This document shows, piece after piece, positions 53,596 to 56,850 of a DNA stretch of 64,000 nucleotides. How positions within the stretch are numbered: the stretch's first letter is position 1; every line of letters starts with the position of its first letter. Source of the stretch: Methanobacteriota archaeon (GTDB taxonomy: Archaea; Thermoplasmatota; Thermoplasmata; SG8-5; JAGLSY01); the NCBI GenBank assembly GCA_020697715.1, contig JAEHCO010000002.1, forward strand, positions 224,001 through 288,000. Direction: 5' to 3'. A program made the position numbers and the translations under genes. The notes below the pieces were generated by a model, which was not told the DNA's origin, searched no databases, and worked only from the letters and a program-made list of their open reading frames with translations.

Positions 53596-54639
53596 TCAAA
53601 TATGATCGTAGATATTCGCATTGGCCCCACCATGGCCAATGTCTGTTTCTATCTGCTTTAATAACAATATTCTTTTGAATGTAGATGGGTGGGTGGACAT
53701 GAACTCCATCCTGGCGCGCCCACTCTTTGCTTGTTCTTCCATGGCCTTCTGAAGTTCCCTGTCATCCAGAACTCCATCACCATCCAGATCATACTTGTTC
53801 TTGTTCTGCATGATACTGGCGATCTCTCTTTTCGCACTGACCGGATCTCCGATATAAAAGGCTCTGGCGGCTCCTGGTTTTTCATTTGACAATGAAAGTC
53901 CGAAAGTTATCTTGGCAAGTGCCGAGCTGAGGCTGTGCGGGTCGCCCGTGGCTACCGCGGAATAGGAATCCGCGTAGAACTCTCTCTGCCTTGAAAGTTT
54001 CAAAATAAGTAGCTGTGATATGAAATATACCGCATAGCTGATGATCGCGATAATGATGATCGCTCCAGCATCCCTGTTGCGCCTTCCTCCCCAGAGGAAG
54101 CTTCTGGCCAGCATCCAGGCCAGCATGGGTATCGCACTGACGACCGTCATGACAACGACGTCATTGTGTCTAAGATGGCCGATCTCATGCGCGAGCACAC
54201 CCTTGACCTCTCTCTGGTTCAGCTTTTCCAGAAGCCCGGTGTGAACTGCCAGAGTTGAACTCTTCCTTGACCTTCCGAACACGAAAGCATTGGGTGTTGG
54301 ATCATTGGAAATAGCTAGTTTCGGCATTGGAATGTCCGCTTGCTTTGCCAATTGACTAACTTCTTGCTCAAGCCAGGGATTTTCACCGGGTTTTAGATAC
54401 TGAAGACGCGATCCCCATCGTATTATACCCGGGGATATCGCCCATTGTATGAGCATGAATATGCCGACAAAGAAGAATATCAAAATAAGCTGGCCGATAA
54501 TATTGACGGTTCCATTGTAATACCACATGATGAATTCGAATATCAGCATGATGAACACGAACAGAAGTCCGAATATCATGATGAGGGTGAGAGCCATGCT
54601 CCTTTTGAGTGCGCCAAGTGAGGCCATTGTGTCCGGCAT
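53596..54639 (-). CDS. htpX: Zinc metalloprotease HtpX (M48) with an EF-hand-like insertion
   Basis: PNAF, HTGLL, GVLAHEIGH (HExxH), SRQREFYAD and STHP motifs; DLDGDGVLDDRE loop. Confidence 0.9.
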   Translation of the reverse strand: MPDTMASLGALKRSMALTLIMIFGLLFVFIMLIFEFIMWYYNGTVNIIGQLILIFFFVGIFMLIQWAISPGIIRWGSRLQYLKPGENPWLEQEVSQLAKQADIPMPKLAISNDPTPNAFVFGRSRKSSTLAVHTGLLEKLNQREVKGVLAHEIGHLRHNDVVVMTVVSAIPMLAWMLARSFLWGGRRNRDAGAIIIIAIISYAVYFISQLLILKLSRQREFYADSYSAVATGDPHSLSSALAKITFGLSLSNEKPGAARAFYIGDPVSAKREIASIMQNKNKYDLDGDGVLDDRELQKAMEEQAKSGRARMEFMSTHPSTFKRILLLKQIETDIGHGGANANIYDHI

Positions 54640-54740
54640 GATAATTTCAAGATATAAGGATATCGGCGGAAAATATACACAATCCAATCAAACATTATAT
54701 AAACATCTTGATTTTACAGGGTTTACCCAAAGAACACCAT

Positions 54741-54824
54741 GCGGGGATAGCCAAGCCTGGTCAACGGCGCTAGATTCAGGGTCTAGTTCTTAGTGATTCG
54801 CCGGTTCGAATCCGGTTCCCCGCA
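54741..54824 (+). tRNA. tRNA-Leu(CAG)
   Basis: Acceptor GCGGGGA/TCCCCGC+A; anticodon arm CTAGA-ttcaggg-TCTAG; long variable arm; T arm GCCGG-TTCGAAT-CCGGT; 84 nt. Confidence 0.95.
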
Positions 54825-54924
54825 TTTTTCATTATAGGATTCGAACGAAGTTCGATCGAGAATTTATTCATAAATTCGAGAGAGCACCGCAACGAAGTGT
54901 AGGTGCGAAATCCGGTTCCCCGCA
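54825..54924 (+). mobile_element. tRNA-Leu array unit 1 (100 bp, same type as the tRNA-Arg element)
   Basis: Core starts ATAGGATTCGAAC-gaa-GTTCGA; hairpins GAATTTAT/ATAAATTC and GCACC/GGTGC; ends with AATCCGGTTCCCCGCA (= 54809-54824). Confidence 0.65.
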
Positions 54925-55082
54925 CCTTGTTTTATAGGATTCGATAGTAGTAGTCGGTTGCCGTAAACCCACCATTTTCATTCAGCTAAACTCGAAGCCA
55001 GACGTATGCTTCGAGAATTTGGGTTTATGGCCTACGATGGGAACATCATGCCAGGGGCATATCGTTCACACGGTTCCCCGCA
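54925..55082 (+). mobile_element. tRNA-Leu array unit 2 (158 bp, structured)
   Basis: Core starts ATAGGATTCGA at 54934; ends CGGTTCCCCGCA at 55071-55082; homologous to unit 3. Confidence 0.65.
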
Positions 55083-55310
55083 TTTTTCATTTTTAGATGC
55101 GACTTCACCCATAGAACCCACGCATCTATTTTATCAAACTCATTTATGTGTTTGATTCGATAGGATTCGAAAGTAGTAAACGGTTGCCGTATGCTCATCG
55201 AAAAATATTCATCTGAACTCGAAGCAAGACGTAAGCTTCGAGATTTTGAGCATATGGTCTACGGATGTGAACATCATGCCAAAGGCATATCGTTCACACG
55301 GTTCCCCGCA
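55083..55310 (+). mobile_element. tRNA-Leu array unit 3 (228 bp; core 55160-55310 homologous to unit 2)
   Basis: Core starts ATAGGATTCGA at 55160; ends CGGTTCCCCGCA at 55299-55310, followed by CCA; two extra hairpins in 55093-55157. Confidence 0.65.
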
Positions 55311-55413
55311 CCATTTTCTCTATTTTCTAACATCATAGAGGCGGAGAGTTTAGACGAAAGTGATATAAGCAATACTTTCGATTTACTTAGGCAAGCGGAG
55401 GAGTGGCTGAATA

Positions 55414-55857
55414 ATGGATAAAAAAGGTAAGACGGTTCTATTTGCCAGTATCTTACTAATTATCATAATTATCATTGCTGTTTTTATTTCGATTACTGTT
55501 TATCAAGACACAGATGATATATTATTAACAGTATCAAAAACTTCTGCGGGGACACATTCTGTAGATCTAACGGTTTCAGGCATCAGACCAAATGGTACAG
55601 ACTCGGTATCATTAGATGATGTTGTAGCCTGGCTCTATTATAATGAATCTCAAACAATGATAAAATTGAATGAGGTTTCCCATTTTAAAGACGATTATGT
55701 CAACTTCACCTACATCGATATTAATGATAGCCAGACTATTGATGTTGGAGATGTATTCTCTATAGAATATCTCAAAGCAGGAGAATTAGGTGTTGATATT
55801 GTAAAAGAAGACATTGCTATCCTTACCTTTATAGAGTATTATTCAACCACTCCGTAG
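55414..55857 (+). CDS. Small membrane-anchored exported protein (possibly pilin-like)
   Basis: MDKKG followed by a long hydrophobic helix; beta-rich body with DINDSQTIDVGD; GGAGGAGTG upstream. Confidence 0.6.
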   Translation: MDKKGKTVLFASILLIIIIIIAVFISITVYQDTDDILLTVSKTSAGTHSVDLTVSGIRPNGTDSVSLDDVVAWLYYNESQTMIKLNEVSHFKDDYVNFTYIDINDSQTIDVGDVFSIEYLKAGELGVDIVKEDIAILTFIEYYSTTP

Positions 55858-55920
55858 CGTTGTCTTTCTGAGGAGTGAGAACGCTTTTCGACGAGTAATA
55901 AAAATAGGCTCCTGCCAGAG

Positions 55921-56850
55921 TTAATTAAAGATCTTCTTGATCATCCACTGAGCGTCGAACTTTTCCAGGTCATCATATTCCTGTCCAGTTCCTACAAAGA
56001 TAATGGGCTTTCCAACTGCATGTGCAATTGACAATGCGGCTCCGCCCTTTGCATCTGCATCGATCTTGGTAAGTATGGCCGCATCCAATCCAATGGCATC
56101 TTCGAACTTCTTGGCTTGCTCCACTGCATCATTTCCTGCAAGCGAGTCACCAACGAATATCACCATGTCTGGATTAACAACTCTGTTAATTTTCTTCATC
56201 TCATCCATCAAGTTGGAGTTCGTCTGCATCCTGCCAGCAGTGTCTATGAGAACAACATCCTTGAATCTCGCTCTGGCATGCTCCACTGCATCGAATGCCA
56301 CCGCGGCCGGGTCTCCGCCCGCCTGGTGTTTTATTATCTTGAATCCGAGGTTCTCGGAATGAATTGTCAATTGTTCTATGGCTCCAGCTCTGAATGTGTC
56401 GCCCGCTGCCAATACGCAGGACTTGCCCTGCTTCTTCAATCGATGGCCTATCCTCGCAATAGAAGTTGTCTTGCCAGTCCCGTTCACTCCAACGAACATC
56501 AGTGTAACTGGTTTTTCATGGCTGTTGATGAACTCATCAAAATCAATGGCCTCTGTGTCCAGTATCTTGGTAAGCGAGACCTTCAGGCTTTCATTGATAG
56601 ACTTTTCAAAATCAGATCCTCTCTTCACTCGCTTATTGATGAGATCTGCCTTTAAATTCTCCTTGAGCTCTTCTATGACCTCGATCGCGACATCTGATTC
56701 TAGAAGTCCCACTTCTAGATCCCATAAAATGTCATCCAGCTTGCTTTCTTTTATGCGCTTTCCGTCATCTTCCGATATAGCTTCTGCTGAGAATTCTTCC
56801 TTGGTCTGCTTTTTGAACCCATCCAGCTTGTCTTTGAGGAATTTGAACAT
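55921..56850 (-). CDS. ftsY: Signal recognition particle receptor FtsY
   Basis: GVNGTGKTT, DTFRAGAIEQL, DTAGR, TKIDADAKGG and GTGQ motifs. Confidence 0.95.
   Translation of the reverse strand: MFKFLKDKLDGFKKQTKEEFSAEAISEDDGKRIKESKLDDILWDLEVGLLESDVAIEVIEELKENLKADLINKRVKRGSDFEKSINESLKVSLTKILDTEAIDFDEFINSHEKPVTLMFVGVNGTGKTTSIARIGHRLKKQGKSCVLAAGDTFRAGAIEQLTIHSENLGFKIIKHQAGGDPAAVAFDAVEHARARFKDVVLIDTAGRMQTNSNLMDEMKKINRVVNPDMVIFVGDSLAGNDAVEQAKKFEDAIGLDAAILTKIDADAKGGAALSIAHAVGKPIIFVGTGQEYDDLEKFDAQWMIKKIFN

Follow-up and report, generated by a model that had tools for sequence, protein, structure and literature searches.

The 64,000-nucleotide stretch of archaeal DNA analysed here (the window) carries on its plus strand, at 54741-54824, a gene for tRNA-Leu(CAG) that was predicted by ARAGORN and matched by the Rfam tRNA model at 49.6 bits. 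Three small units lie behind the gene on the same strand, and the present study concerns the second and the third of them, which belong to a family of dispersed, structured repeats. With the tRNA end placed at 54824 by Rfam, the boundaries are 54825-54924 for unit 1, 54925-55082 for unit 2 and 55083-55310 for unit 3. The T-loop/T-stem and the 3' end of the tRNA are the sequences that are complemented or copied in these units. Unit 1 is another kind of small unit and stands outside the repeat family. The repeat search showed that its leader complements the T-loop region perfectly over 10 nucleotides (nt; 54837-54846) and that the tRNA 3' end is copied over 16 nt in its tail (54909-54924). It has only two copies in the genome, the second being 93% identical and situated behind tRNA-Leu(TAG). 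Unit 2 consists of a leader with the T-loop complement (54937-54944), a short-form element resembling the mobile elements called PATEs, and a 12-nt copy of the tRNA 3' end as its tail (55071-55082). Unit 3 opens with an insert of about 79 nt (55083-55161), which is a second, unrelated small dispersed repeat with a hairpin of its own at about 55094-55129. Unit 3 proper (55162-55310) has the same layout as unit 2: a leader with the T-loop complement (55163-55171), the short-form PATE-like element and a 12-nt tail (55299-55310). The open reading frames (ORFs) over units 2 and 3 are just mechanical frames of 49-76 amino acids (aa).

A preliminary description of the locus had placed three helices in each of units 2 and 3, and reading of the sequence found them at these places on the plus strand, in agreement with the repeat search. 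Helix 1 of unit 2 pairs 54960-54971 with 55020-55031 (12 nt, 92% complementary, by sequence reading and independent repeat search), and helix 1 of unit 3 pairs 55186-55197 with 55247-55258, where the repeat search returned 55187-55197 and 55247-55257 (11 nt, 91% complementary). Helix 2 is an 8-bp hairpin inside helix 1, formed by 54991-54998 and 55008-55015 in unit 2 and by 55218-55225 and 55235-55242 in unit 3. Helix 1 enclosing helix 2 makes up a conserved internal module, which spans 54960-55031 in unit 2 and 55186-55258 in unit 3. Helix 3 lies at 55041-55052 and 55056-55067 in unit 2 and, from the repeat search, at 55266-55280 and 55284-55298 in unit 3, where it is a hairpin of the right-end type discussed below. 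The two adjacent units are 83% identical. Helix 1 differs between unit 2 and unit 3 in both bases of three pairs, the 5' arm going from A to T, A to G and C to T with each change compensated on the 3' arm. A G-T pair, the sole non-Watson-Crick position in helix 1 of both units, is kept at the same position.

It had also been claimed that this G-T pair works on the tRNA-sense strand alone, and the family pattern agrees. The position is G-U in 12 of 13 copies from the same genome and in all 33 copies of the relative G002, and across 35 copies from 16 genomes it is A-U in 17, G-U in 16 and G-C in 2. Alternation between G-U and A-U indicates that the fold belongs to the plus strand. When the units were folded as DNA and compared with dinucleotide shuffles, z was -4.3 for unit 2 and -5.2 for unit 3, with none of 200 shuffles as good; folded as RNA, the values were -2.8 and -4.7. 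The minus strands fold about equally well, so folding energy does not choose the strand.

The source genome (G000) is represented by 34 contigs and is 93.8% complete, and it was compared with 40 relatives that are drafts of 59-100% completeness. A DNA search of G000 revealed further copies on other contigs, having the same three helices with different paired bases. A covariance model, R1, was built from a MAFFT alignment of 13 G000 copies, for which RNAalifold gave a consensus fold of 29 pairs. In this alignment, which was not fitted to the structure, 18 of the 29 predicted pairs show changes on both sides. R1 matches unit 2 at 54945-55077 (contig positions 278945-279077) with 116.6 bits and unit 3 at 55171-55305 (279171-279305) with 123 bits. 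In G000 it gave 17 matches at E < 0.01, 15 of them at E <= 5e-10. Matches were present in 16 of the 41 genomes, that is, G000 and 15 of the 40 relatives. They are confined to two families of one archaeal order, f1 (4/4 genomes) and f4 (11/13), and none of the 23 genomes from 17 other families of the class had any. Positive genomes hold from 2 to 76 copies, at most 80 candidates having been scored. The 1.8-Mb draft G002, which is 74% complete, has 70 matches at E <= 1e-6. The units had been taken as a private feature of the tRNA-Leu transcript, and this part of the description does not hold for a dispersed family with at least 15 copies here and at least 70 in one relative.

The covariation was measured again on larger sets. 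In 34 copies from G002, 93.5% of the cells at paired columns were paired, compared with 80.9% after shuffling and 32-46% with slid partners, and 21 of the 29 pairs changed on both sides. In 35 copies from 16 genomes, 94.2% of the cells were paired against 77.2% after shuffling, and 27 of the 29 pairs changed on both sides. None of 500 shuffles reached the observed values in either set. It should be noted that fitting to the model, as was done for these two alignments, favours structure; the 13-copy alignment and an alignment of 37 left ends described below were unfitted. R1 also carries an ascertainment bias, since it detects only copies that kept the fold. The covariation in homologue alignments thus bears out the selected secondary structure that had been proposed from units 2 and 3. 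Local tandem duplication of the two units with chance compensation was rejected, as the same helices recur with other paired bases in dozens of unlinked copies of 16 genomes.

Two forms of the repeat exist. Short forms are about 125-135 nt in length, and full-length copies are mostly 183-230 nt (around 205 nt), with one of 271 nt. Full-length copies have a median pairwise identity of 0.71-0.82 and a maximum of 0.93. Many G002 copies reach about 70 nt further in the 5' direction and carry there a conserved left-end domain, made of a closing helix, a second helix and a hairpin. The short form, to which units 2 and 3 and most G000 copies belong, has a conserved 5' segment of 11-15 nt in place of the left-end hairpin. 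In three G000 copies (C34:23400-23623, C28:68640-68861 and C11:314714-314843) about 85 nt with an extra hairpin split the 5' strand of helix 1; these may represent a nested insertion or a three-way-junction variant. A blastn comparison of a full-length copy with plasmids and phages gave no match. A 14-base pattern scan of collections of genome contigs and of viral contigs gave random matches only, in unrelated bacteria and viruses, and a family-level search added no genomes beyond five already found. Among the literature records listed, nothing relevant was found on such a repeat in Thermoplasmata.

The left-end domain connects the family with an autonomous transposon. A pattern for this domain matched twice in G000, 9 times in G002, 4 times in G004, 15 times in G010 and 23 times in G018, with no match in the reversed control; of the two G000 matches one is a real site and the other looks unrelated. 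One of the G010 matches lies about 175 nt upstream of that genome's match to the Y1 transposase domain. This locus is an autonomous element of the IS200 type of insertion sequence (IS), with a left end, an ORF of 158 aa that matches Pfam Y1_Tnp at 100 bits, and a right end having a hairpin and terminus of the helix 3 type. A second autonomous element with the same ends was found in G020, and its protein is 85% identical to that of G010. Local alignment showed that the ends of the G010 and G020 elements match the 5' domain and helix 3 of the full-length G002 repeats. The full-length G000 copy at C22:45051-45280 also matches both autonomous ends. Helix 3 of unit 2 is homologous, through the family alignment, to the IS200-type subterminal hairpin of the right end together with the lower stem that the guide forms with the cleavage motif. 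The autonomous element lacks helices 1 and 2: R1 run with its filters off on 17 transposase loci gave a best E of 0.12. At locus L404 (G010 contig C52, about 1483-1753), a full-length copy carries about 150 nt of different, hairpin-rich sequence in place of helices 1 and 2. As the left and right ends are the same, this replacement indicates that the ends can carry different cargo.

The flanks of the copies also behave like those of such an element. The left ends were aligned with MAFFT in 37 rows, 35 from repeats and 2 from the autonomous elements. They form three nested helices, with 91.7% of cells paired against 79.2% after shuffling and 23-38% with slid partners, and 13 of 19 pairs changed on both sides. 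In the outermost helix the 4 nt just outside the element and its first 2 nt pair with an internal segment. These flanking 4 nt are TTAC in 22, TTAG in 9 and TTAT in 3 of the 37 rows, and the last flank base and its guide base are C-G in 21 rows, G-C in 6, U-A in 3, G-U in 2 and other combinations in 5. The right-end terminus shows the same kind of motif, its six columns reading TTTACA in 17 of 34 copies of one set and in 17 of 35 of the other. In two tandem pairs the right-end terminus directly abuts the first base of the next copy and serves as its flank. Terminal inverted repeats were not found in 18 full-length copies (3.8 of 20 positions match, with about 5 expected by chance). Dispersed copies show no target duplication either, since their flank words are shared at 3.9 compared with 3.6 +/- 0.2 for shuffled partners (n=18). 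Two orthologous sites were seen both occupied and empty, and G000 is empty at each: the first holds a short form in G003, 1-2 nt after a stop codon, and the second holds a full-length copy in G002 without duplication.

Our data indicate that units 2 and 3 are probably tandem short-form copies of a dispersed, transposase-less derivative of an IS200/IS605 element, similar to PATEs, whose hairpins are most likely read as single-stranded DNA (ssDNA) of the top strand. The full-length form of about 205 nt consists of the left-end domain, the internal two-helix module and the right-end hairpin, which is helix 3. PATEs (palindrome-associated transposable elements) are described as carrying palindromes near their termini that are related to the ends of IS605-type elements; they lack inverted repeats, do not duplicate the target and vary from copy to copy (PMC3119063). 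The Y1/HUH transposases of the IS200/IS605 group are reported to recognise top-strand DNA hairpins together with pairings between guides and cleavage sites (PMC10055086). From this mechanism it would follow that the hairpins and the guide:motif helices of the repeat form on the top strand as ssDNA, where a transposase would read them during excision as an ssDNA circle and insertion into ssDNA. In helix 3, the lower stem would then represent pairing of the end motif with the right-end guide, and the upper stem would be the subterminal hairpin. Recognition of top-strand ssDNA would explain the compensatory changes and the strand-specific G-T pair. The preliminary description had concluded that the units function as folded single-stranded RNA, with ssDNA in brackets; a selected fold of one strand was indeed found, and because the family ends match IS200-type ends, the bracketed option is the better reading. 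As for helices 1 and 2, our guess is that they give a compact fold that joins both ends, or a substitute for the left-end hairpin in the short form, and alternatively they may act as RNA. On the whole, the units probably belong to a new family within a known class of mobile elements and do not represent a new tRNA-linked RNA.

A number of observations weigh against this explanation. The copies are old and heterogeneous, with median identities of 0.58-0.82, and no two of them reach 0.95; recent mobility is therefore not supported, and recent bursts were rejected on the same ground. The ends of the autonomous elements score at chance level (19-24) when compared with units 2 and 3 directly. Units 2 and 3 and most G000 copies lack the left-end hairpin, and family-level homology of helix 3 is the sole connection that they have with the IS ends. 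A cognate transposase, at least 85% identical, was found in only 2 of the 22 genomes of the order, and G000 is not one of them. The single Y1 gene of G000 belongs to a distant clade, is 31-35% identical and has different ends. The copies may therefore be fossils, or may be mobilised by this distant resident enzyme. Genes for Y1 proteins are also present in the repeat-free families f2 and f3, and none was found in the high-copy metagenome-assembled genomes G002, G004, G018 and G021, which are 59-83% complete. The known mechanism of transposition needs no helices 1 and 2, yet these covary as strongly as the ends. The tRNA-linked units are bounded by direct repeats of 12-22 nt, which IS200/IS605 insertion does not produce. 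Finally, the present tests do not separate ssDNA from RNA.

The resident Y1 gene of G000 lies at C1:16300-17100, between msrA/msrB and a tRNA gene. Many relatives have a single gene of its clade, flanked on either side by a conserved motif, and from the sequence the gene looks like a fixed or domesticated copy. It was rejected as a partner of the kind that RAYT proteins form with their repeats, as there is no repeat in its flanks and the presence of Y1 does not track the repeats. TnpB (PF07282) gave no match in G000, and in the order it exceeded the cut-off in 1 of 22 genomes, one without repeats.

The tRNA-linked copies require a separate discussion. Units of the PATE type were found behind tRNA-Leu genes at 8 loci of 5 genomes, comprising 9 units that are all in tRNA sense: behind tRNA-Leu(CAG) in G000, G001, G002, G003 and G004, behind tRNA-Leu(TAG) in G000 and G004, and behind tRNA-Leu(CAA) in G001. 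All 9 close with 12 nt copied from the 3' end of the local tRNA, identical in 8 and with one mismatch in the ninth. These tails track three different acceptor sequences and a T-stem difference, and where visible the repeat continues into about 10 nt of the local trailer, giving 21-22 nt in total. Dispersed copies differ from the tRNA-linked units in this respect, only the latter being flanked by 12-22-nt direct repeats of local sequence. Each unit opens with a complement of the T-loop/T-stem, of 8-10 nt in 8 units and imperfect in one, and at both loci with a variant T-loop base (2/2) the complement carries the matching change. The CAA locus of G002 is empty and has no complement, which argues that the insert brings the complement along. 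Small units of unrelated kinds, with repeats of 16-21 nt, occur at the same loci, unit 1 of the window being one of them. The start of the repeat is set by the type of unit, 12 nt in the 9 PATE-type units and 16-17 nt in others.

The contents of these arrays vary. The CAG locus has units 1-3 in G000 and units 1 and 2 in G003. A contig from a cold-seep DNA metagenome joins position 54830 to 55090 and so omits 259 nt, corresponding to units 1 and 2; its sides of at least 80 nt show 0 and 3 differences. The junction indicates that a near-identical strain carries a shorter array. The insert at 55083-55161 has partial copies at 5 other contig places in the genome (blastn-short), a module related to it sits behind tRNA-Leu(CAA) of G003, and several metagenome contigs cover this piece alone. 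A second G000 array, behind tRNA-Leu(TAG) at C28:52270-52620, contains the 93% identical relative of unit 1, a PATE-type unit and a solitary leader-like piece, every tail having the T-stem base of that tRNA. The tRNA-Leu(CAA) gene of G000 (C11:45850-46250) has an apparent intron in its 5' half and is followed by a hairpin-rich unit of another kind, about 200 nt long, with a flanking direct repeat of 20-21 nt. At this locus G003 has an extra unit lying between the tRNA and the unit that directly follows the tRNA in G000. About 100 nt past unit 3, an ORF of 147 aa with a hydrophobic N-terminal segment begins at 55414 of the window and ends at 55857.

The tRNA-Leu loci are an insertion hotspot, at which copies of the tRNA 3' end show where one unit joins the next. 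The units had been described as something other than decaying attachment-site (att) remnants. They are not randomly decaying DNA, and to this extent the statement stands; the contrast was too sharp, as the tails are insertion junction repeats. Two models can be considered for the tails. In the first, an element that had captured the tRNA 3' end would insert right after the T-loop under the direction of a guide. Such a capture is plausible because the spacing in IS200/IS605 elements is reported to be flexible enough to take in flanking DNA (PMC10055086). In the second the tails arise by att recombination of the integrase type. The 12-22-nt direct repeats argue against a plain IS200/IS605 insertion, and the T-loop complement together with the minimal layout of the units argues against plain att remnants.

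The first model can be carried further, and we do so tentatively and with low confidence. The tRNA-linked short form could be an IS200-type element that has been re-aimed at tRNA-Leu genes by a long DNA guide, namely the 8-10-nt complement of the T-loop/T-stem. A Y1 transposase would cut the top strand of the tRNA gene right after the T-loop, and the element would supply the final 12 nt of the tRNA from its own sequence, together with the terminator. The essential tRNA gene would in this way be rebuilt at each insertion and restored at each excision, and new units would pile up beside the tRNA. The left-end hairpin, or a fold for synapsis, would be supplied by helices 1 and 2. If true, this would be a case of an HUH transposon behaving like an integrative element.

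The alternative origin of the array, which appears rather doubtful to us, is that it consists of stacked remnants of integrations between att sites. The tails would be the att cores, and the PATE-type copies passengers or later insertions; this covers the origin of the tails and of the array and leaves the hairpins aside. It would account for the fact that each unit ends in a direct repeat of 12-22 nt made of the local tRNA 3' end and a few trailer bases, for the unrelated small units with 16-21-nt repeats at three isoacceptor loci (CAG, TAG and CAA) and for the dependence of the repeat start on unit type (12 nt or 16-17 nt). The different sets of units at the CAG locus in G000, in G003 and in the metagenome contig fit recombination between repeats. 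However, units of 100-230 bp would be too small for an integrase or for plausible recombination of a double-stranded circle. The genome has one match to a tyrosine recombinase (PF00589), which is on another contig, and the units have no room for an integrase. A minimal layout of leader, element and tail recurs at 8 loci in 5 genomes, and random decay would not give that. The change of the T-loop complement along with the T-loop at 2/2 variant loci is predicted by targeting through a guide and not by att recombination.

Another explanation is that the family, or at least the module of helices 1 and 2, works as RNA, either as a multicopy structured small RNA or as a cis-acting element of transcripts such as a stabiliser, terminator or processing signal. 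Such an RNA would hitch-hike on transposon ends or have been exapted from them, and at the tRNA-Leu arrays read-through would produce it, with release at the tRNA-like tails. We consider this unlikely. In its favour, helices 1 and 2 do not occur in the autonomous element and are nevertheless conserved with covariation across two families, and copies that diverge to a median identity of 58% still have 93-94% of their cells paired. All of the 9 tRNA-linked copies lie in tRNA sense, and the alternation of G-U and A-U at the G-T position suits RNA too. Runs of at least five T follow 10 of 78 copies compared with 3 of 78 for A runs, but this excess is small, controls giving 3-6 of 78. The sequencing runs that were compared share at most 1 in 10 of the sampled words and cover the tRNA and scattered conserved pieces; the sole true RNA library among them covers the tRNA only. 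These runs gave no sign of an RNA from the units, of read-through from the tRNA or of processing by RNase Z or CCA addition. In Rfam 15 no family was found for the repeat: within 54000-56000 only the tRNA matches at E <= 10, the rest being noise far below gathering scores, and six loci with full-length copies gave no match at E <= 1. No fixed distance to a promoter emerged, and both the gene context and the orientation of the copies vary. Covariation itself does not decide the matter, since lineages of master copies under the constraint of transposition would give the same covariation without selection on each copy, and R1 finds only the copies that kept the fold.

Some specific forms of RNA function and of other mobile origin were considered and rejected. 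A riboswitch or an element of the 5' untranslated region does not agree with 14 G000 copies that have unrelated neighbours in all orientations, many of them between convergent genes. Independent small RNA genes are not supported, as TATA-like boxes upstream are at no fixed distance and T runs follow the 10 copies mentioned only. Motifs of the H/ACA or K-turn type did not fit on inspection by eye. An omega-RNA of TnpB was dismissed since TnpB is neither in the genome nor associated with the element, and a retroelement or short interspersed element since the genome has no reverse transcriptase.

What had the appearance of a new structured RNA behind a tRNA gene becomes a member of a recognisable class, the transposase-less derivatives of IS200/IS605 elements, in an uncultured archaeal order. 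With 70 copies in a draft of 1.8 Mb, the family makes up a visible share of the intergenic DNA, and the repeats probably help to fragment the assemblies of the order. As the flank motif and its guide covary across copies, the family provides a natural data set for guide-directed choice of targets by Y1 transposases. The covarying internal module and the stacking at three tRNA-Leu isoacceptors are not explained by the known class, and either feature could point to a new mode of folding or targeting in ssDNA transposons. For annotation, it follows that covariation alone is insufficient for calling such copies small RNA genes.

Comparison with known systems shows where the family agrees with them and where it departs. 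Archaeal integrative elements and casposons target the 3' ends of tRNA genes, and the array resembles their sites in that insertions are stacked downstream of a tRNA gene with direct repeats of its 3' end between them. It differs from them in the size of the units (100-230 nt) and in having no integrase, Cas1 or polymerase in or beside them, although the Cas1 family was not searched for. The rtT repeats at tyrT of Escherichia coli, which Rfam holds as the RtT family, follow a tRNA gene in tandem, and each of them closes with a copy of the tRNA 3' end. The tandem units of the window end in the same manner. They give no match to RtT in Rfam, are unrelated in sequence and come from another domain of life, and unlike rtT they are transposon-derived and dispersed; nothing relevant on rtT repeats was found among the literature records listed. 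Repetitive extragenic palindromic (REP) sequences and REPINs of bacteria are short hairpin repeats scattered between genes, which a single-copy Y1 protein, RAYT, is believed to mobilise in trans; REPs are about 20-40 nt long, and RAYT genes are flanked by their REPs. G000 likewise has a single Y1 gene, but this gene is not flanked by repeats, and the present elements are 125-205 nt long with IS-like ends.

The likeness is closer to IS200/IS605 elements. No TnpB or omega-RNA is associated with the present family, unlike in that group. The full-length repeats have the flank guide 3' of the left-end hairpin, where it forms the closing helix; in IS608 the guide lies 5' of this hairpin. The features shared with IS608 and ISGst elements are subterminal hairpins on the top strand, motifs at the flank and at the end (TAM and TEM) that pair and covary with internal guides, near identity of TAM and TEM, lack of target duplication, and autonomous copies with an ORF between the ends (PMC10055086). 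The closest parallel is with the PATEs of Haloquadratum walsbyi, a likeness that rests on their description and not on sequence comparison. PATEs share with the present family a non-coding size, the lack of terminal inverted repeats and of target duplication, near-terminal hairpins that match a transposase-bearing IS605-type element, a 4-nt flank motif and heterogeneous copies (PMC3119063). As in PATEs, the copies far outnumber the autonomous elements, and many genomes that carry them lack the cognate transposase. The present family comes from another archaeal lineage, probably Thermoplasmatota: FtsY look-alikes are most frequent in that phylum, which is a weak hint, and no McrA was found. It also differs from PATEs in a deeply conserved, covarying two-helix internal module that lies outside either IS end, in a short form without the left-end hairpin, and in the stacks of copies that follow tRNA-Leu genes and are accompanied by tRNA 3'-end repeats.

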